From IMG/VR virus record IMGVR_UViG_3300027498_000003, positions 60,637-124,636 of that record: DNA of 64,000 bases; one strand, 5' to 3'. Position numbers and translations under genes: made by a program. The notes below the pieces were generated by a model. It was given only the letters and a program-made list of their open reading frames with translations. It was not told the DNA's origin and ran no database searches. Numbering within the stretch: the stretch's first letter is position 1; each line of letters starts with the position of its first letter. Below, piece after piece: positions 2,716 through 52,028 of this stretch. This DNA comes from a virus.

Positions 2716-5366
2716 TAAACTGCATTTGAAGGATTAGCAAAATTACCTTGTGATAGTATTTGTAGAGGTATATTTTGTAAGGCTTGATTAAATGCTCGCC
2801 TCGCCGCGATTTCTGCATTTGCTCTTTGAGACGCCACGTCATTTTTACTTTGAGCCTCATTCGTCAGTAAGTTAGTATTTAGCCCTAATAGCTGGTTAGC
2901 TAAAGCTTGCTGCTGATCAACTATACCTAAGTCAAATCTTGCTCTGTTTGTAACCTGCCCACTGTTAAATCCAAATTGATTCTGGTTAATCCCAGAGTTA
3001 ATACCAAATATTTGATTAGCAATACCGTTTTGTAAATTTATATTGTTATTAGTTGCATCGAATATTCTTCCTATGTTGTTGGCCTGGTTATTAAAACCTG
3101 TTTGTATTGCACCGTTAAATCCTTGAAATCTATTAGTTAGCCCTGCAACTTGTCTATCCGCATTGAGGTTATCTGTATCGATAAATGCATTAGCCTGATT
3201 CGTTCTGAGTTCCCCTAATCTTAGGTCAAAATTGGGATTAAATCCTGCCTGCTGTTGTCGGGCTAAATTAGCTCTCACTAAAGCGTCCTGTACTGGATCT
3301 CCTGTAGACACGTTGTTAGCGAAGTTGTTGGCCGCCTGTCTGGATGCTCTGTCGCTTATAGCTGCTTGTTGAGTAGCATCTATGGAAGGTTGGAATGTAT
3401 TAGCTCTAATCACAGCTGGGGCTGGGCTAAACAAGGCCGTGGCTGCTCCAAGCGCTGTCGCTGAATTATTTATGTCTTCTAAACCATCCAAGTTGGCTAA
3501 ATTATCCTCAGCTCTCTGTAAGCCTCCCTGAAGGATATCAGTAAGGGTATCCGCTTCTCCTCTTTGATTAGTAAAAAAACTATCTCCTAATCCTTGTAAA
3601 GTATCGAACTGATTCTGGCCTATGTTCGATTTTTGGGATCTTAAATCATTAGACCCTTTAGTGTATTGATTTTTCACATCTCCTAAGTTGGAGAATAGGT
3701 TAGCGTTTCTTTGTTCAACTCCATCAAAAGTATTACCTACTGTTCTTATGTTTCTACCTTCATCATAAACCTGATATCCCGCCGCTGCCAATGCTGCAAT
3801 AGTAGCTGCGTCCTGAGCAACAGGTGATTGGAAAAATCCTTGAACCGGCCCTTGACCTGTGGCAGGGGAAGTAGCAGGTTGTCCTCCTGTAATCTGAGAC
3901 AGTATAGCTTGTAGTACGTTATTAGGTATATCTATCTGTGGTAGCGGTGTATTTATAGGGGATTGAGGTATCTGTAGAGGACTTATAGGTATTCTAGGCA
4001 AAGGAAGAGGAACCGAAGTTCCGTCCTGAGCATGTATAACTGGCCTTCCTCCTAATTGATTTCTTGCTGCAAAAGTATTTCCAAATACGTTTCCCAATGT
4101 CGGCGTTGATTGAATAGCTGCTGCCTGGGCTTGCGGCGCGGGGCCTGCAATACCTTGTGTACCGAATTGACCGAGACCACCTAATAGGCTTCCTAAATTA
4201 AGGCCGCTCATATTACCTAAAGGGTTCATACCTCCTGCTGTTCCTAAACTCCCTGCTCCTCCTAACAATCCTGCGATACTGCCTATATCAAATCCTCCGA
4301 TCTTTACGCCGTTCAGTCCCCCAGATCCTATGAAATTGCCTGTCACCCCTTTCAATACATCTCCGAAATCACCTCCGCCTCTTATTGTGTTATCTATGCT
4401 ACCTATACCTGCTCTTGCAGCTACAGCTAAGTGGGGTGGTATTCCTAATGCTCCTGCCACGGCCGGCATTGCGAAGTCCCCGAATTTATCGGCTAAACCA
4501 TCTGCTATTCCGAATGCATTTCTACCTATGCCTGTTTGATATGCCCCATCTTGTATAAGATCAAGGCCGAGTACTCCGTTAGTCGCTACGTCGAATGCTC
4601 CTAAAGTCTGGTCTCCTACAAATCCTAATGCATCTCTTAATATTGGTATATCGTCAAATCCAGAGTTAATCAAATTGCCGCCGCCTGCGGTAGTTAATGC
4701 GGCATCTGCTACTCCTTTGGCTACATTACCTACAGCTTTAGCCGCTTTACCGAAAAACCTTCCTATCCCTCCGAATGCAGCTTTATTTACTGCGAAAGAG
4801 TGTACTGGCCCCCCTGTCTTGTATATGGGTGTGAATATAACTTCTCCTTCTTCTCGGCGGATCTCCTCACTTTCTCTCTCTATCTCTGCCATGGTGGCTA
4901 TGGCTTCCAGATACGGAAGTCTATGTTTTCTATTCTCTTCGTTAGTTATTTTCGTAAGATAGTCATCTCCTTTTTTGACAGGTATATTACTCTTCAGAGA
5001 CTTAGACATCTTGGCCGGAGTCAGCTTCCTTTTCTTCCCCGTGAATCCTACCATCTTCAAAATATCGAACTCTTTAGGTTCTTTCCCTTTCTTGAACTCA
5101 CTATAGGGGTATATCTTCTCTGCAATTATATATTGCTCTGCATTTTTCTTATCTATTTTTAGAAAATCAGATAAAATAAAAGTTTCTCCAGGAAGAGCGT
5201 CTGTTACCAAATCATCATCGCCGCTGTCTTCCATTTGCTTATGGCTACGCTTAGCATGGACATCTGTTATAGCCCCATTTGGCCACGCAATCGTCTCTTC
5301 GCGCTCACTTTGAATTCGCACCAATTCAGTATTACTGCTAAAGTACTTATCTATATCGTCTTTCAT
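2715..5366 (-). CDS. Putative ejected (cargo) virion protein, Gly/Ala- and Asn/Gln-rich, 883 aa
   Basis: Long ORF downstream of the muzzle gene. Gly-rich hydrophobic middle, helical N/Q-rich C-terminus, KTGG/AFGG/QLGG motifs, no Cys. Confidence 0.65.
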   Translation of the reverse strand: MKDDIDKYFSSNTELVRIQSEREETIAWPNGAITDVHAKRSHKQMEDSGDDDLVTDALPGETFILSDFLKIDKKNAEQYIIAEKIYPYSEFKKGKEPKEFDILKMVGFTGKKRKLTPAKMSKSLKSNIPVKKGDDYLTKITNEENRKHRLPYLEAIATMAEIERESEEIRREEGEVIFTPIYKTGGPVHSFAVNKAAFGGIGRFFGKAAKAVGNVAKGVADAALTTAGGGNLINSGFDDIPILRDALGFVGDQTLGAFDVATNGVLGLDLIQDGAYQTGIGRNAFGIADGLADKFGDFAMPAVAGALGIPPHLAVAARAGIGSIDNTIRGGGDFGDVLKGVTGNFIGSGGLNGVKIGGFDIGSIAGLLGGAGSLGTAGGMNPLGNMSGLNLGSLLGGLGQFGTQGIAGPAPQAQAAAIQSTPTLGNVFGNTFAARNQLGGRPVIHAQDGTSVPLPLPRIPISPLQIPQSPINTPLPQIDIPNNVLQAILSQITGGQPATSPATGQGPVQGFFQSPVAQDAATIAALAAAGYQVYDEGRNIRTVGNTFDGVEQRNANLFSNLGDVKNQYTKGSNDLRSQKSNIGQNQFDTLQGLGDSFFTNQRGEADTLTDILQGGLQRAEDNLANLDGLEDINNSATALGAATALFSPAPAVIRANTFQPSIDATQQAAISDRASRQAANNFANNVSTGDPVQDALVRANLARQQQAGFNPNFDLRLGELRTNQANAFIDTDNLNADRQVAGLTNRFQGFNGAIQTGFNNQANNIGRIFDATNNNINLQNGIANQIFGINSGINQNQFGFNSGQVTNRARFDLGIVDQQQALANQLLGLNTNLLTNEAQSKNDVASQRANAEIAARRAFNQALQNIPLQILSQGNFANPSNAV

Positions 5367-45423: not shown

Positions 45424-46025
45424 AATTTATTCACATCAAAAGGCCCGTATACCTCGGAGGCCTTTAGAACGTATACATCTAAATCTTTCTCGTCTACTGA
45501 AGTCGCTCCGAATCGTATAAATTGATCCTGAGCATAGGATACTTCTATTGCTGGTAACTTCGGCGGAGGAGGTGTTGTAACTATATGCATGCCTGCGGCT
45601 TCTTTAGTCGTCGCCCAAAATCTAAAATCTGGGTTGTCTAACTCCCCTACAACTTTACTAGGCTGTATCAGCACTACATCCCCCTCTTCGTAAACTCTAC
45701 TGAAGTGGTCAGGGTTGCTTTTTATGAAAGCGCCTACCTTTAGTATCTTGGCAGCTGGATATACTACAGAAGAGTATAACCCTGTTTGAGGTATGTAGTC
45801 CCCTTTAGTGTGATTTGGTCCGTCTGTGTTCGCTACCACATACTTAACATGCTTCTCTTGGTGCGATTTTGGAGGAAAGAATCTAAAGAATCTGACCAAA
45901 TATACATCTTCGTCAAACCCATAGGGGGTATGAGTATCCGGGAATTGGTCGTTATTAGCAAATCCCTTTATCTGCCTGTTCAGCTCCTTGTAGAACTTAC
46001 TGCTATCCGTTTGTTTTTTCTTCAC
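45402..46025 (-). CDS. Hypothetical protein, possibly GroES-like fold, 207 aa
   Basis: AKILKVG...YEEGDVVLI is weakly GroES-like. Confidence 0.3.
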   Translation of the reverse strand: MKKKQTDSSKFYKELNRQIKGFANNDQFPDTHTPYGFDEDVYLVRFFRFFPPKSHQEKHVKYVVANTDGPNHTKGDYIPQTGLYSSVVYPAAKILKVGAFIKSNPDHFSRVYEEGDVVLIQPSKVVGELDNPDFRFWATTKEAAGMHIVTTPPPPKLPAIEVSYAQDQFIRFGATSVDEKDLDVYVLKASEVYGPFDVNKFCKVKEE

Positions 46026-46494
46026 TCGATTTGTTTATGTAATCTTTAAATGCGGCAATCCCTGCCTCAGGGTTTTTAGGATGTTGCCTTTTAAAAAACC
46101 TAGACTTTTGATATATCTTAAATTTCCGCAATGTTTCGTAAAATATCCCCTCGCCATGCCACGAGAATCCTGTATTCCCTCCAGCCTCCTCTCTCTCTAT
46201 TATTGGATCTATATAGTCTTTATAAGTGCCCCTGACTAATTTACCCATCTCAGTCATACCTGGCTTAGTCATGTAAACATCTCTATTAAGCTTTGCTCTG
46301 TGGCTAAGCATAAAATGCCCCCAAGGGATGACTATCCTCGGGATCCGTACGTCATGTAGACATTTAGATAATAAAGTCAGGTAATCTGTTAGTATTTCAA
46401 TTCCATCGGATAACGTCATATCCAAGTCATTTTCCTCTATGATATCCTCTATGTGAGGTGTCAAAAACTTCATCATACCGTCCAGTTTAGCCAT
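46003..46494 (-). CDS. IHF/HU-like protein, 163 aa
   Basis: EILTDYLTLL...IPRIVIP.WGHF pattern. Confidence 0.4.
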   Translation of the reverse strand: MAKLDGMMKFLTPHIEDIIEENDLDMTLSDGIEILTDYLTLLSKCLHDVRIPRIVIPWGHFMLSHRAKLNRDVYMTKPGMTEMGKLVRGTYKDYIDPIIEREEAGGNTGFSWHGEGIFYETLRKFKIYQKSRFFKRQHPKNPEAGIAAFKDYINKSSEEKTNG

Positions 46495-46915
46495 CCAGTA
46501 CTACGTTAAATTTGCAAGTAAAAGACGGTATCGATCCGTCTTCTAATTTATCTAATGGTAAATGCTGAAACATCTCTGGGATATCAAATTCCTTCTTCTT
46601 TTTATCAAATGTAATCCAATCACTATCCCTAAGCTTAGCCAAATACATATTTATATCTGAACTAGCGTTAAACCTCATTGATTGCATTATATAAGACACC
46701 GCTCTCTTGTCTCTATACTTCGTAACCCCTTTATTATATAATATTACTAATAATATAAGAAATTTCTTAACAGAATCTGGGGGTATCGGGATGCGGTATG
46801 TTGTAGAATAGAAATCTATTATAATCCCTACATAAGTATATATATTTTTAGTATTAAATTCTTCCCTGCCCAACGACACATTACTTCCTTCCACACTAAA
46901 CTTAGGCGAGCTCAA
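46487..46915 (-). CDS. Hypothetical protein, possible winged-helix DNA-binding, 142 aa
   Basis: INMYLAKLRDSDWI resembles an HTH recognition helix plus wing; first gene of the late operon. Confidence 0.35.
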   Translation of the reverse strand: MSSPKFSVEGSNVSLGREEFNTKNIYTYVGIIIDFYSTTYRIPIPPDSVKKFLILLVILYNKGVTKYRDKRAVSYIMQSMRFNASSDINMYLAKLRDSDWITFDKKKKEFDIPEMFQHLPLDKLEDGSIPSFTCKFNVVLDG

Positions 46916-46978
46916 ACTCTTAATTTAATATAATAAATATTATCTTTACAGAGCAAAAGTAATATAAAATATAATATA

Positions 46979-47878
46979 ATGAAAGACCCTACTGTTATTT
47001 TCGAAGAAGATACTCATAGTTACTGGCATGGGTCAGGCCTTTTGGGATCTGATACCCGTACAAAGATGGTATCCGGAACTACTTTTATAGGGCAGTTCAC
47101 TGAGCCTTTCAATAGAGCTGAGATCATAGCTAGATGCGCTATGGCGGAGATAGTAGGCCCTCAGTTTTGGTCTATGTTCTTTGCTAATGAAGATGTTATG
47201 GCTACCGAAGATGAGCTATTGGACTTCTTCCACTATAAAATAAGTGAGGATCATTATCTGGAGAGAAAGATTACAATAAGGGAGGAGTGGGATTTGGGTA
47301 ATAGAAGAGGTACGGCGCTTCACCAGGAAATAGAAGAGGATCTGTATGCTGCGGGATTCGCTAAGCATCCATTTATGGATATAGAGGTCCCTGTAGTTAA
47401 GTTTCCCAAAAATTACGATAATCAGAGTATTGTTAAAGACTTATCCTCTTTAGAAGACGGAGCTTACCCAGAGCTGGTGGTATGGCATGACGACGCATTG
47501 CTGGCTGGCCAGGCTGATTTCCCTATTATATACACCGATCCTAAAACAGAAGAAAGGTGCGTAATCATAATAGATTTTAAAACAAATGGTGGTTATAACC
47601 CTAATAAAGGATTAAAAAAGCGGGAAGAGCTTACAAAGCCTACCTACGCCAAAACATTCATGAAGGATCCGATATCCCATCTATATGACTGTACTTACTC
47701 CAAATATCAGCTGCAGTTATCTCTGTATGGGCATCTACTTGAGTTGCATGGATTCAAGCCGCAGCCGCCGGTAGTAAAACACTTCCTAAACTACGATAAA
47801 GAAGACTTTGAATACATCAAATACCCTTATATTGGTAAAGAGTGCGAATCTATCGTCGCTACTCTTCTTGAGGATTAA
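46979..47878 (+). CDS. PD-(D/E)XK superfamily (Cas4/RecB-like) exonuclease, 299 aa
   Basis: VSGTTFI, RGTALH, LAGQAD, IIDFKTN and YQLQLSLY motifs. Confidence 0.8.
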   Translation: MKDPTVIFEEDTHSYWHGSGLLGSDTRTKMVSGTTFIGQFTEPFNRAEIIARCAMAEIVGPQFWSMFFANEDVMATEDELLDFFHYKISEDHYLERKITIREEWDLGNRRGTALHQEIEEDLYAAGFAKHPFMDIEVPVVKFPKNYDNQSIVKDLSSLEDGAYPELVVWHDDALLAGQADFPIIYTDPKTEERCVIIIDFKTNGGYNPNKGLKKREELTKPTYAKTFMKDPISHLYDCTYSKYQLQLSLYGHLLELHGFKPQPPVVKHFLNYDKEDFEYIKYPYIGKECESIVATLLED

Positions 47879-48105
47879 CCAAATGCTTCCCTTGCTTCGT
47901 CTTCATTGGGGAAGAGTTCACATCCCCAAGTACTGAAGTGCGTACCCCTATCGTCTATGAGGTACCCTTTATGTCGGTTTTCAATGTATTCTAATACTGC
48001 ATCTCTAAACGTAATGCCATACCCTATTCCCAATTTAGATGCCTTGGCTGAATTGCCAGTCACAACGTAACCCTGCATCCATATATCCCACTCTTTCATA
48101 TTCAT
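47875..48105 (-). CDS. Hypothetical protein, 76 aa
   Basis: Compact ORF whose ATG forms the predicted IS target motif TTCAT. Confidence 0.65.
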   Translation of the reverse strand: MNMKEWDIWMQGYVVTGNSAKASKLGIGYGITFRDAVLEYIENRHKGYLIDDRGTHFSTWGCELFPNEDEAREAFG

Positions 48106-48148
48106 AGTTTCTATTTAAGGATACCAACTCCTTTAGGTGTTGGAGGAA

Positions 48149-48520
48149 TTAACTTCGCTTTTGGTTTTGGATATACCTTTGAACAGTTTGTTCAGAGGCA
48201 TGCCCAATAGTCCCTGCATAATAACTCTTAGTCCAAAGAGTAGGTATCCGTGTTGTTAAATGTTTAAATTCTTTTCTTAAAATACTACTTGTATACCCTT
48301 TTACTTGGTTTGCAATAAACTTAACAGGTGTTGAACTATCTGCCTTGACAAACAGATGTACATGATTGTCCATTATTTCTAACTCTATGATTTCCCAATC
48401 TCTTTGCTTGCATTTCTCAATTATCAAGTCTTTTAACCGTTCTTGTACTACCTGTGTCAGGACATTTCGTCTATACTTAGTACACCAAACTATATGATAT
48501 TGTAACTTTCCTGTGTGCAT
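48149..48520 (-). CDS. tnpA: IS200/IS605 Y1 (HUH) transposase
   Basis: YHIVWCTKYRR, HUH motif HVHLF, LWTKSYY and catalytic-helix YIQNQ. Confidence 0.95.
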   Translation of the reverse strand: MHTGKLQYHIVWCTKYRRNVLTQVVQERLKDLIIEKCKQRDWEIIELEIMDNHVHLFVKADSSTPVKFIANQVKGYTSSILRKEFKHLTTRIPTLWTKSYYAGTIGHASEQTVQRYIQNQKRS

Positions 48521-48569
48521 AGGAACTATTTATGGGTTAACAAGTGTTATATGGTAGTATATCTGTATA

Positions 48570-49676
48570 ATGGTAACAAAAGTTCACAAAACATATCAAT
48601 TTAAACTGAAACCAAACAAAACTCAAGCAAATATATTCCATCAATGGCTTGGGACTTGTAGGTATCTTTATAACTCGGCCTTAGAGCACCGAATATCTTA
48701 CTTCAAAGATACTGGTGAAGGCGTGTCCAAGTATGACCAATATAACGAGCTGCCTCAAATAAAAAGAGAACTTCCATTCGTAGCCAAGGTTTATTCCGAT
48801 GTTCTTCAAGAAGTCTTAGATAGAATAGATAAGTCATACAAGTTATTTTTCAAAGGTGGCGGATTTCCTAAATTCAAAAATAAATATAGTTACAACTCCT
48901 TCACTTACAAAAGAAACTACAAAATAAATGAAAATAAAGTCAAACTACCTAAGATTGGGTGGGTTAAGTTCTTTAACTCAAGACCAATAAAAGGTAAACC
49001 CAAAACAGCAACATTAATATTCAAAAATAATAGTTGGTTTATATCAATTGTATGTGAGCAAGAGATACAATCTAAACCTATTGACGATAGCCAAGCAGTC
49101 GGAATAGATGTAGGTATTGCTAAGTTTGCATATTTGTCTGATGGATCTTTTATAGAGTCTCCTTATTTTTTAGAGCCTAATTTGGGGAAGTTAAGGCTTC
49201 TGCAAAGAAAGTTATCTAGGCAAAAGAAAGGTTCTAACTCTATAGAGAAAACTAAAAGACAAATTTCAAAACTACACAACAAGATAAAGAACCAACGAAA
49301 GGACTTTCTACACAAGGTATCCACTAACATTGAGCAGTTTTATTCTTCTTGTTATGTTGAGGATTTGAAGATTAGTAATATGACTAAACTTAACTCCACC
49401 CTTTCAAGAAGGATGTTAGATAATGGTTTTTACTCATTTAGGCTTATGCTTGAGTATAAGTTTAAACACAATAGTAAACATTTTCTATCAGTCAACCCAG
49501 CCTACACTTCTCAAATGTGCTCAAGTTGCGGCGCTGTGGATAAGAAATCTAGACTTTCCCAAAGCGAATACCTTTGTACTAACTGCGGATTTGTGGATAA
49601 TAGTGATCTGAATGCTGCAAAAAATATAAGAGCTAAGGGCATTAGCTTTGGAACAAAACGTAAGGTGTTAGCCTAA
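48570..49676 (+). CDS. tnpB: RNA-guided endonuclease TnpB, 368 aa, catalytic triad intact
   Basis: N-terminal KTYQFKLKPN; RuvC-I VGIDVGI, RuvC-II YVEDL, zinc finger CSSC...CTNC, RuvC-III DLNAAKNI. Confidence 0.95.
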   Translation: MVTKVHKTYQFKLKPNKTQANIFHQWLGTCRYLYNSALEHRISYFKDTGEGVSKYDQYNELPQIKRELPFVAKVYSDVLQEVLDRIDKSYKLFFKGGGFPKFKNKYSYNSFTYKRNYKINENKVKLPKIGWVKFFNSRPIKGKPKTATLIFKNNSWFISIVCEQEIQSKPIDDSQAVGIDVGIAKFAYLSDGSFIESPYFLEPNLGKLRLLQRKLSRQKKGSNSIEKTKRQISKLHNKIKNQRKDFLHKVSTNIEQFYSSCYVEDLKISNMTKLNSTLSRRMLDNGFYSFRLMLEYKFKHNSKHFLSVNPAYTSQMCSSCGAVDKKSRLSQSEYLCTNCGFVDNSDLNAAKNIRAKGISFGTKRKVLA

Positions 49677-49741
49677 GCGTGTCCCTAGAATCCACCTTGC
49701 TTTAGCTGGTGGAGTTGTCAATCTTCTTCATTTATGAATCC
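49560..49741 (+). ncRNA. Predicted TnpB omega/reRNA (scaffold overlapping the tnpB 3' end and right end, plus ~20-nt flank-derived guide 49722-49741)
   Basis: Established TnpB architecture applied to the right end seen here; the 5' boundary is approximate. Confidence 0.6.
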
Positions 49742-49903
49742 TTTAGATAATTGCGCTTCGAGGTGAGCGACGCGCTTCTGCTTCATAACCATGGGCACCT
49801 GCCTGCGGACGAAGTGCCGCCCTGCCTCGCGGCGGAGCACCCGCGTTTCAGATTCGGTAACCTCCGCGTGGGTTACCCTGTTTCCTTTTTCGTAGTATTT
49901 CAT
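49718..49903 (-). CDS. Hypothetical protein, 61 aa; its stop codon is supplied by the IS right end
   Basis: TGA is the reverse complement of the tca in the terminal TCAA. Confidence 0.5.
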   Translation of the reverse strand: MKYYEKGNRVTHAEVTESETRVLRREAGRHFVRRQVPMVMKQKRVAHLEAQLSKGFINEED

Positions 49904-50365
49904 TTTCTAGCTATTTTTCCTAGATTTTCTCTAGACCAAATTTAGGGATTTTCGGTCCCAAAGCCGAAAAAATCCCGGAGGAATTTGGTATCTTTTTTAC
50001 CCAAAGAACCTTATGTTCTCCGGTGTAAAAAGCTAATTTCTATATATACCGGGGTTCCCGATACGTAGGTAGGGGGTAAAAAAGGGTTACCCTATTTACC
50101 CGAAATAACCATTTAGGTATAAATGGATAAATGCTGGGCATTTGTTTGTTTATTGTATTCGAAAGTGTCGCCTTCTTTTAAGAGGCGGCGCCGAGGATAC
50201 TTGATTGTAATTAATTTGGTAATTGAAAATTAACGAATTGAATACCAATTCAACTTGGTGGTGAAGCTACCGATTTAATTTTGAAATCCGTATGTATTAA
50301 CATAATTTTAACTTATTACAATTTATTATATATTTAGAGGATACTTTGTTTATATAAGTATTTGC

Positions 50366-50373
50366 TATATTAG
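50366..50373 (+). promoter_or_regulatory. Putative -7 promoter element TA(T/C)ATTAG, also at 54762, 57377, 60081 and 62977, with a variant at 61911
   Basis: Recurs in AT-rich intergenic gaps a few to ~26 nt upstream of start codons; one mismatch from the Bacteroidota TAnnTTTG element. Confidence 0.55.
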
Positions 50374-50382
50374 CCTTCAGTA

Positions 50383-50868
50383 ATGGGTAGAAAGATAGTA
50401 ACAGAGTTAGACATCTATACAGATGCATCTACTGAAGGTAGTAAGTCGAAGAACGGAGGGGTGGCATTCGTAGTTTGCCGGGACGGGGCTCCTATCTGTA
50501 TGGAGAGTATGTATATGGCTGGGGGAGATAATAGTAGATTAGAGCTTTCTGCAGCCTGCGCGGCTATAAAGTGGTGTACTGACCAGGGATACCTAATCAA
50601 TAAGAGAAAAAGAATAAAGAAACTAAACATCTATTCAGATGCTAAGTATGTAACTAACTCTATTAGATATGTAGAAACTTGGAAAAAAGACGGCACATGG
50701 GATGGCCGGCCGAATAAAGATTTACTAGAATATATCTATAAGTGGTCTAAATTTATTAAGTTTACGTGGGTTCGCGGGCACAGAGGTAATAAATACAACG
50801 AAGTGGCAGACTTTATGGCCAGAACTACACGTAAAACAAAAGAAAATTTTATTATAAATGATGGATAG
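50383..50868 (+). CDS. rnhA: Ribonuclease HI
   Basis: IYTDAS, ELSAACAAI, IYSDAKYV and FTWVRGHRGNKYNEVADFMA: all catalytic positions present. Confidence 0.92.
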   Translation: MGRKIVTELDIYTDASTEGSKSKNGGVAFVVCRDGAPICMESMYMAGGDNSRLELSAACAAIKWCTDQGYLINKRKRIKKLNIYSDAKYVTNSIRYVETWKKDGTWDGRPNKDLLEYIYKWSKFIKFTWVRGHRGNKYNEVADFMARTTRKTKENFIINDG

Positions 50869-51175
50869 TATAGTTTTTATAGATGTAAAGTATCTCATAA
50901 TTTTAGGGATAATAGCCTTAGCAGTTTTATGGTTTGTATTTATGTACTTCATATACGCACCCATTAAAGCCTACATATTTGGGTATAAAGTATATCAGTA
51001 TAGAAATCATCACACTAACTTTTATTCTAAATATAATAAATCTAAGGTCATGTGGCATAAAACGGACGAAGAGGCTCTCAAACATATGAGTAGCACTTTT
51101 TATCACATGGATATTGTCTACCCTAATAAACATGCTAAAAAGATTTCTTATAAACCAAACGGCCCGTGGAAATGA
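50858..51175 (+). CDS. Membrane-anchored hypothetical protein, 105 aa
   Basis: N-terminal TM segment LIILGIIALAVLWFVFMYFI. Confidence 0.55.
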   Translation: MMDSIVFIDVKYLIILGIIALAVLWFVFMYFIYAPIKAYIFGYKVYQYRNHHTNFYSKYNKSKVMWHKTDEEALKHMSSTFYHMDIVYPNKHAKKISYKPNGPWK

Positions 51176-51441
51176 CACTATTTGAGAGATATGAAGATTA
51201 TCTAACAGATAATAACTGGAAAGATAAAGTAGGCGGATCGGATTGGGATACGTATACTTATATAGGTAAAGATGGTGCTTATGAGTACTTCTTAACTGTT
51301 GTAGATAGAGCAGATAAAGTATTGATTGTTAAAAAGATGCATAACTCAGAGATATTTTATAAAATAGAAACATCTGATCCTCCTGAGATAGTTATAGGAG
51401 AGCTTTTGAAATGGGAAGTTGATAAAGGGGCGGAGATATGA
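51166..51441 (+). CDS. Hypothetical protein, 91 aa
   Basis: Overlapping operon packing. Confidence 0.55.
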   Translation: MEMTLFERYEDYLTDNNWKDKVGGSDWDTYTYIGKDGAYEYFLTVVDRADKVLIVKKMHNSEIFYKIETSDPPEIVIGELLKWEVDKGAEI

Positions 51442-51494
51442 CTGAGGTGTTAATTGCAGATTATTGGGAACATTTTAAAAAACCTGTAGAGTAA

Positions 51495-52028
51495 ATGAGA
51501 GAAGTTGAATGTTTTGTTGGAATAGATCCTGGTAAAAGTCCAGGGTTATGCCTTATAGACATAAGAGGAGATATAATTAGTACTAAGCTTTTGAAAGATA
51601 AGAAAGGGGAGATGCGTCATCTTGAGCTTTTTGAATGGGTAAAATTAAGTTCTTATGGCGCCAAAGCAGCCATGGAGCTGCCTCACAGTGTATTCAGCGC
51701 CTCTTCTAAGTCCAATTTTCAGTTTGGGCTATCCGTCGGCGCATGCAAACAAAGCTTAATATCCACGTTTCCCAAGGGGAGAGTTAAATTCCCACAACCT
51801 AAAGAGTGGCAAAAACTAATCCTTATAGATAATGACATTGTTATTAAGAAAGGCAAGAAGGACACAAAGAGTACCGCATTTGCTGCCGCGAAACGGATAT
51901 TAGGCAATAGATGGGATTATAGTGTATTTTTACCTACAGAAAGGAGCAGTGTGGCTAATCATAATTTAATAGACGCCTATCTCATAGCAGAATACTGCCG
52001 AATTACTCATATAAATTTACCATTATGA
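51495..52028 (+). CDS. RuvC-like Holliday junction resolvase
   Basis: VGIDPGKS.GL, AMEL, FQFG...G, P.EWQK and NLIDAYLIAEY. Confidence 0.85.
   Translation: MREVECFVGIDPGKSPGLCLIDIRGDIISTKLLKDKKGEMRHLELFEWVKLSSYGAKAAMELPHSVFSASSKSNFQFGLSVGACKQSLISTFPKGRVKFPQPKEWQKLILIDNDIVIKKGKKDTKSTAFAAAKRILGNRWDYSVFLPTERSSVANHNLIDAYLIAEYCRITHINLPL

Follow-up and report, generated by a model that had tools for sequence, protein, structure and literature searches.

An insertion sequence in a phage genome raises the question of whether the ends of an uncharacterised mobile element, and the site it entered, can be read from the DNA itself. The window analysed here, a stretch of 64,000 nucleotides, belongs to a viral record of 126.5 kb and carries at 48106-49721 a span of 1616 bp that was originally predicted to be an IS200/IS605 element. 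The Pfam domains of its two gene products, their aligned catalytic residues and the hairpins at its ends all bear out that assignment: the span is an intact IS200/IS605 element with IS605-type gene order and IS608-like ends, and a search of the record returned this one copy only. Taken as a whole, the sequence argues that the element is probably autonomous as well as intact, that it works in the manner of IS608, that it was probably inserted 3' of a TTCAT pentanucleotide, and that this pentanucleotide should also be the target-adjacent motif (TAM) of its nuclease.

Genes of the element

The element carries two genes, which diverge:

48149-48520, minus strand: tnpA, encoding a 123-aa Y1 HUH transposase (Pfam Y1_Tnp, 6.9e-39)
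48570-49676, plus strand: tnpB, encoding a 368-aa predicted RNA-guided nuclease (Pfam OrfB_IS605, Cas12f1-like TNB and HTH domains)

The solved structure closest to TnpA is that of ISHp608 TnpA (E 3e-30). Alignment to IS608 TnpA places HVH on HIH, so that the HxH motif is present, and places the tyrosine of VQRYIQNQ on that of VKQYIENQ, the Y127 equivalent in the C-terminal helix. For TnpB the closest solved structure is ISDra2 TnpB (E 2e-56), and alignment to it puts GIDVG, VEDL and NSDLNAA on the RuvC D-E-D catalytic positions. The element thus has the attributes that define the IS200/IS605 family, namely an HxH/Tyr TnpA, a TnpB with RuvC and TNB domains, subterminal hairpins on the same strand and guide tetranucleotides, while those that identify IS608 itself (target TTAC, guide AAAG, co-oriented tnpA and tnpB) are absent.

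Relatives of TnpB at 60-72% identity were found in a protein search. There was no close TnpB in 401 Bacteroidota genomes, and in genome contigs, phages and plasmids no TnpB exceeded 40% identity. The viral contigs searched did not contain the 30-nt right-end sequence, and an Rfam scan of 46000-52000 returned nothing relevant.

End hairpins and the right boundary

Hairpins with TTTA loops had been proposed at both ends, and the motifs are found where they were placed:

48106-48148, plus strand: left end (LE), a 14-nt linker, the guide G_L GATA, an imperfect TTTA-loop hairpin and AGGAA; identical in a second allele, L034
48124-48143, plus strand: left hairpin, CCAAC-T-CC-TTTA-GG-T-GTTGG, with GATA directly 5' at 48120-48123
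49677-49721, plus strand: right end (RE), comprising the guide, a TTTA-loop hairpin, the linker AGTTG and the cleavage site C_R TCAA at 49718-49721
49692-49712, plus strand: right hairpin, CCACC-TT-GC-TTTA-GC-T-GGTGG, with G_R GAAT at 49688-49691

Each hairpin is the minimum-free-energy fold of the plus strand as single-stranded DNA, with z-scores of -1.45 and -2.09, modest values that are expected of stems of 7-8 bp. Both hairpins are subterminal, imperfect and on the plus strand; terminal inverted repeats are absent, and no target duplication is visible at the predicted junctions.

The second allele comes from a contig of 3909 bp, L034, recovered through the cluster of the 76-aa protein encoded beside the element. 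It carries the same insertion sequence in the same place, with the left junction and the whole element identical. Between 48098 and 50094 the window and L034 are identical apart from one 10-nt indel, which lies at the right end:

49722-49731, plus strand: TCTTCTTCAT, 10 nt adjoining RE, present in the window and absent from L034, ending in TTCAT (49727-49731)

The right boundary is fixed by this comparison, since identity runs through TCAA and the indel begins at the very next base. Relatives of the element likewise have AGTTGTCAA in common and diverge directly after it. These observations, together with the identity of the motifs to those of IS608, confirm the proposal that the right guide GAAT and the site TCAA follow the IS608 rule, and on such sequence comparisons the right end at 49721 can almost certainly be regarded as settled.

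Outside the identical tract the flanks of the two alleles differ by about 1.4%. On the left, 17 SNPs are spread over about 1200 bp, and those closest to the element lie at 48097, 48091 and 48087. The SNP-free tract is lopsided, extending 8 nt to the left of the element and 363 nt to the right within these 1.4%-divergent flanks, which is compatible with co-conversion on the side predicted to be cut by TnpB or with a chance recombination breakpoint. Farther to the right, at 50338-50380 and just upstream of an RNase H gene, the window diverges sharply from L034, and L034 carries about 250 nt at window position 50377 that the window does not have.

The pairing rule and its calibration

In published accounts of IS608 (PMC3201880, PMC5934647), the left cleavage site C_L TTAC is found 5' of its hairpin, 19 nt from the foot, and C_R TCAA 3' of its hairpin at 10 nt, the guides being AAAG (G_L) and GAAT (G_R). 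Base -4 of the cleavage site pairs with guide base 2 and base -3 with guide base 1, leaving A-2 unpaired (PMC3201880, PMC5934647). From the IS608 motif pairs TTAC/AAAG and TCAA/GAAT and from covariation at the right ends of relatives, we infer that base -1 would pair with guide base 4. The earlier application of the rule to this element agrees with the published IS608 values, GAAT calling for TCAA and GATA for TC(A)T (PMC3201880, PMC5934647). The third base of the left guide is T, in contrast to the A of both IS608 guides.

The rule was calibrated on TnpB loci taken from viral contigs. Among 46 distinct, automatically found right ends of the form GAAN-hairpin-TCAN', N and N' are complementary in 38, and all four Watson-Crick combinations are seen (GAAG/TCAC 19, GAAT/TCAA 13, GAAA/TCAT 4, GAAC/TCAG 2); at least 5 of the 8 discordant ends lie far from tnpB and are spurious hairpins, which have been left in these counts. 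At left ends, 13 of 22 elements have the predicted C_L at a distance of 15-22 nt from the hairpin foot, against 6.1 +/- 1.75 with permuted guides (13 reached by 1 of 2000 permutations) and 2.6 with random guides (13 reached in none of 2000). Three relatives with a diverging tnpA (L045, L077 and L080), read by hand, fit at 16-18 nt, and in about 20 relatives the distance from predicted cleavage site to foot is 16-21 nt, never about 5 nt. This performance at both the right and the left ends of relatives indicates that the end-calling method is sound. As for chance matches, TCAT occupies 0.58% of window positions, and 4.5% of positions have a TCAT ending 15-22 nt upstream; at that level a left-end motif match by itself is no more than suggestive, and takes its weight from added evidence.

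Two solo tnpB elements, neither with a tnpA, share the right-end architecture of the window element, GAAT-hairpin-AG(T)TGTCAA; the window element, by comparison, is complete and has its tnpA. One of them, L038, lies in another phage contig of 130.6 kb and encodes a TnpB 55% identical to that of the window. Its GAAT...AGTTGTCAA is intact and its flank diverges after TCAA, while its right-end hairpin, in the region 3600-3650, has collapsed to 3 bp, CCC-GCTTT-GGG, and no left hairpin is visible upstream. The other, L039 (TnpB 45% identical), has a GAAT/TCAA right end and a TTTA-loop left hairpin with the guide GAAA, and 16 nt separate its foot from the end of an upstream TTCAT. This predicted target, in the region 2125-2353 of L039, reads on the minus strand as the ATGAA that starts a 57-aa ORF with a hydrophobic segment. 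A search for further copies of this left end returned L039 alone.

A third relative, L042 (TnpB 42% identical, tnpA and tnpB diverging), is arranged otherwise. Beyond its tnpA lies an inverted copy of the right-end hairpin together with AGTGTCAA (1990-2056), preceded by TTAT and not by GAAT, so that it has two inverted right-end-like ends instead of a normal left end.

The predicted left boundary and site of insertion

At the left end the prediction concerns flanking DNA and the gene that abuts the element:

48101-48105, plus strand: TTCAT, the pentanucleotide predicted to serve as target and to be cleaved at the left end (C_L = TCAT), outside the element and conserved in L034
47875-48105, minus strand: a phage gene of 76 aa, its ATG (48105-48103) directly beside the element, with five close relatives on other contigs

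According to the proposed mechanism, the plus strand would be the active 'top' strand, TnpA would bind the two subterminal hairpins, and the 4 nt 5' of each hairpin would serve as guides that pair with the cleavage sites. Pairing of GAAT with TCAA would direct cleavage after 49721 at the right end, and pairing of GATA with the TCAT of the left flank would direct cleavage after 48105. The element would then have entered by single-strand 'peel and paste' on the 3' side of TTCAT, landing directly 5' of the ATG of the minus-strand 76-aa gene, and the empty site would most likely have read ...ATATTCAT|TCTTCTTCATTTATG... The 3' end of TTCAT lies 18 nt from the hairpin foot, and the corresponding distance at the right end is 9 nt. 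TTCAT had been preferred to a nearby TTTAA as the left target, and guide pairing together with this distance of 18 nt, against 16-21 nt in relatives, makes it the best candidate. Indirect support comes from the L034 indel, which ends in TTCAT, and from L039, where the guide GAAA goes with a TTCAT as well. A left end after TTCAT, at 48105/48106, is thus a likely prediction.

On the minus strand, TTCAT at 48101-48105 reads as ATGAA, with which the 76-aa gene opens. Members of the same cluster are found on contigs of 5213, 8065, 2002, 25193 and 1727 bp. Four of the five relatives start with MN(I)KEW or MSGKKEW, the exception being P0127, a 74-aa form called from the second methionine, and since close relatives begin MNIKEW the start is most likely the ATG at 48105-48103. 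The contig that encodes P0127 might hold an empty or a different allele. The neighbouring 299-aa protein (46979-47878) has no Pfam match, and a cluster look-up found it split into pieces of 133 and 162 aa on one ENA contig.

On the other side of the element the reading frame of interest is shorter and less secure:

49718-49903, minus strand: an orphan ORF of 61 aa, within G+C-rich DNA (about 53%); its last codons and stop depend on the junction with the element

With the element present this ORF ends NEED*, as had been stated, its stop being the TCA of TCAA. Excision of 48106-49721 does give NEEE* overlapping the ATG of the 76-aa gene, the minus strand then reading ...AAT GAA GAA GAA TGA ATA TGA AAG... 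In L034 the ORF ends ...IIDNSTS* inside the element. The arithmetic behind a near-silent insertion into an ATGA overlap therefore stands, but its biological reading is weaker, as L034 does not have the 10 nt that make the overlap, and as searches of 5.8 billion proteins and of 1.84 billion representatives returned no homologue of the 61-aa ORF, which means that the stop/start overlap may not involve two genes. The status of this ORF as a gene is doubtful. The insertion is in any case silent for coding sequence only: the ATG of the 76-aa gene is parted by 1.6 kb from all upstream DNA. Read-through from the co-oriented tnpA could make up for the upstream signals that this gene has lost.

Around the 61-aa ORF, the interval 49741-49900 stands out by its G+C content, about 53% against 35-40% for the phage, and has an ORF on each strand, of 61 and 64 aa. 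It yielded no protein homologues, Rfam match, repeat elsewhere in the record or significant fold; likewise, no significant structure was found in the flank 49722-50000, and no repeat or match elsewhere for 49722-50380. The minus strand also has the motif TAAATTTG, which resembles a Bacteroidota -7 box, some 35 nt before the 61-aa ORF.

It had also been suggested that a TTCAT specificity would favour start codons. This was overstated, as about 10 of 191 TTCAT sites on both strands of the window (about 5%) are first-ATG gene starts, in a count that used a crude set of 64 genes. Selection, by which insertions inside phage genes are lost, accounts better for the location at a start codon, and the two start-codon cases (the window and L039) are too few for more.

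Alternative boundaries and alternative ancestors

Several other readings of the left end and of the original site have to be weighed against insertion after TTCAT at 48101-48105. TTTAA-type targets and TAMs are known for some TnpBs of the family, and TTTAA is present at 48114-48118, so that the element could begin at 48119. Excision there is tidy too, leaving an ORF that ends NEED*, a 9-nt spacer and then the ATG. Cleavage would, however, fall 5 nt from the hairpin foot, as against 19 nt in IS608 and 16-21 nt in the calibrated relatives, and GATA would be left unpaired with TTAA, for which a guide AAAT is required. The distance and the want of pairing make this boundary very unlikely, and it would turn the TTCAT at the end of the L034 indel into an unexplained coincidence. 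A better case can be made for cleavage after the first of two TTCAT pentanucleotides, at 48095-48099, in which case ATG AAT (48100-48105) would belong to the element. The tetranucleotide is the same TCAT, so that the guide rule is equally obeyed, and excision at 48100 gives NEEE* with an ATGA overlap and shortens the product to 74 aa, with MKEW at its start; a 74-aa form exists as P0127 on a 25-kb contig. Against this, the TCAT at 48096-48099 sits 24 nt from the foot, outside the range of 16-21 nt, the site reads TTTAT in L034 while the element is identical, and relatives of the 76-aa protein begin MN; a left end at 48100 is accordingly quite improbable, if less so than one after TTTAA.

A different kind of alternative keeps the left boundary where it was proposed and changes the ancestor. 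The pre-insertion site may have been of the L034 type (...ATTCAT|TTATGAATCC...), with TCTTCTTCAT carried in by the element or added later, in which case an ATGA overlap never existed. L034 is indeed an IS-bearing allele without the 10 nt, and the sole argument that these are ancestral is the tidy ending of an ORF without homologues. Carriage of flanking DNA would nevertheless need GAAT-directed cleavage at TCAT, with a mismatch at base -1, whereas a deletion is one step and requires no source of extra DNA; moreover, the site reconstructed with the 10 nt has a clean stop/start overlap. We consider an L034-type ancestor unlikely, though not as remote as the first TTCAT. Searches for the site itself were negative: a gapped pattern matching every junction model had no match in viral or metagenome contigs, no second insertion site of the element was found in its own record or in viral contigs, the 76-aa and 299-aa flank proteins had no match in viral contigs, and megablast against GenBank phages gave no relatives of the locus.

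The 10-nt indel and the predicted guide of TnpB

Insertion after TTCAT at 48101-48105 leaves the difference between the two alleles to be accounted for. That the single change in a 2-kb identical tract lies exactly at the right-end junction makes an event linked to the element likely, and each possible placement of the indel has a chance of about 0.6% of ending in TCAT. It is less likely that the element entered two existing alleles separately, since 363 bp of right flank match exactly as well (a chance of about 0.6% at 1.4% divergence). An original junction TTCAT|TCTTC would have put a TTCAT on either side of the 10 nt. A one-ended TnpA reaction could then be envisaged, in which TCAA is cut, the left guide GATA directs a cut at the flanking TTCAT, the 3'-OH of TCAA joins the DNA beyond that TTCAT and the DNA between the cuts is lost. 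A literature search found no TnpA-made flank deletions, and such an origin for the indel is a tentative suggestion and, on balance, an unlikely one.

The indel bears on the nuclease as well. TnpB takes its guide from the flank 3' of the right end (PMC13565253), which by position gives the following candidate:

49722-49741, plus strand: predicted omega-RNA guide segment, the flank just 3' of TCAA

RE would presumably also form the 3' part of the omega-RNA scaffold, and TTCAT should double as the TAM of this TnpB. With the guide in the flank adjoining TCAA, loss of the 10 nt would re-program the nuclease. In the window allele a TTCAT stands before TTATGAATCCTTTAGA, the guide of the L034 type. 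If the deletion was indeed made by TnpA, an L034-type element is predicted to cut the ancestral IS-bearing allele in co-infection, the reverse not being predicted, and alleles of one insertion sequence would then be in competition.

Significance and comparison with known systems

The present understanding of the IS200/IS605 family is unchanged by this element, which is an IS608-type addition to an already known family. Its interest lies elsewhere. With sequence as the only input, the guide and cleavage rule of IS608 can locate the termini of an uncharacterised IS200/IS605 element, and the rule held at both ends in dozens of phage-borne relatives. TTCAT offers a testable TAM candidate for a compact TnpB of 368 aa, and the two alleles are a small natural case of an element's spread, and of the alteration of its own guide, in phage populations.

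The element is a complete but ordinary member of the family that works in the manner of IS608 with a different predicted target, TTCAT. The likeness to IS608 (ISHp608) of Helicobacter pylori extends to an identical GAAT/TCAA right end, to AG after the hairpin foot at both ends, to the same cross-pairing rule and to nearly the same distances, 18 and 9 nt (left and right) as against 19 and 10 nt. The two differ in gene order, tnpA and tnpB being co-oriented in IS608 and diverging here, in the left guide and site (GATA and predicted TCAT versus AAAG and TTAC), and in host, which for the window element is a phage of uncultured origin. With ISDra2 of Deinococcus radiodurans the element shares a pentanucleotide target that doubles as TAM, TTGAT there and predicted TTCAT here. 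The counterpart of guide base 3 pairs with the +1 base in ISDra2 (PMC5934647), and in the window T48122 could pair with A48106 in the same way. ISDra2 is otherwise the more distant in its transposase (TnpA, E 4e-17), its TnpB is about 38% identical to that of the window, and its guide and target sequences differ.
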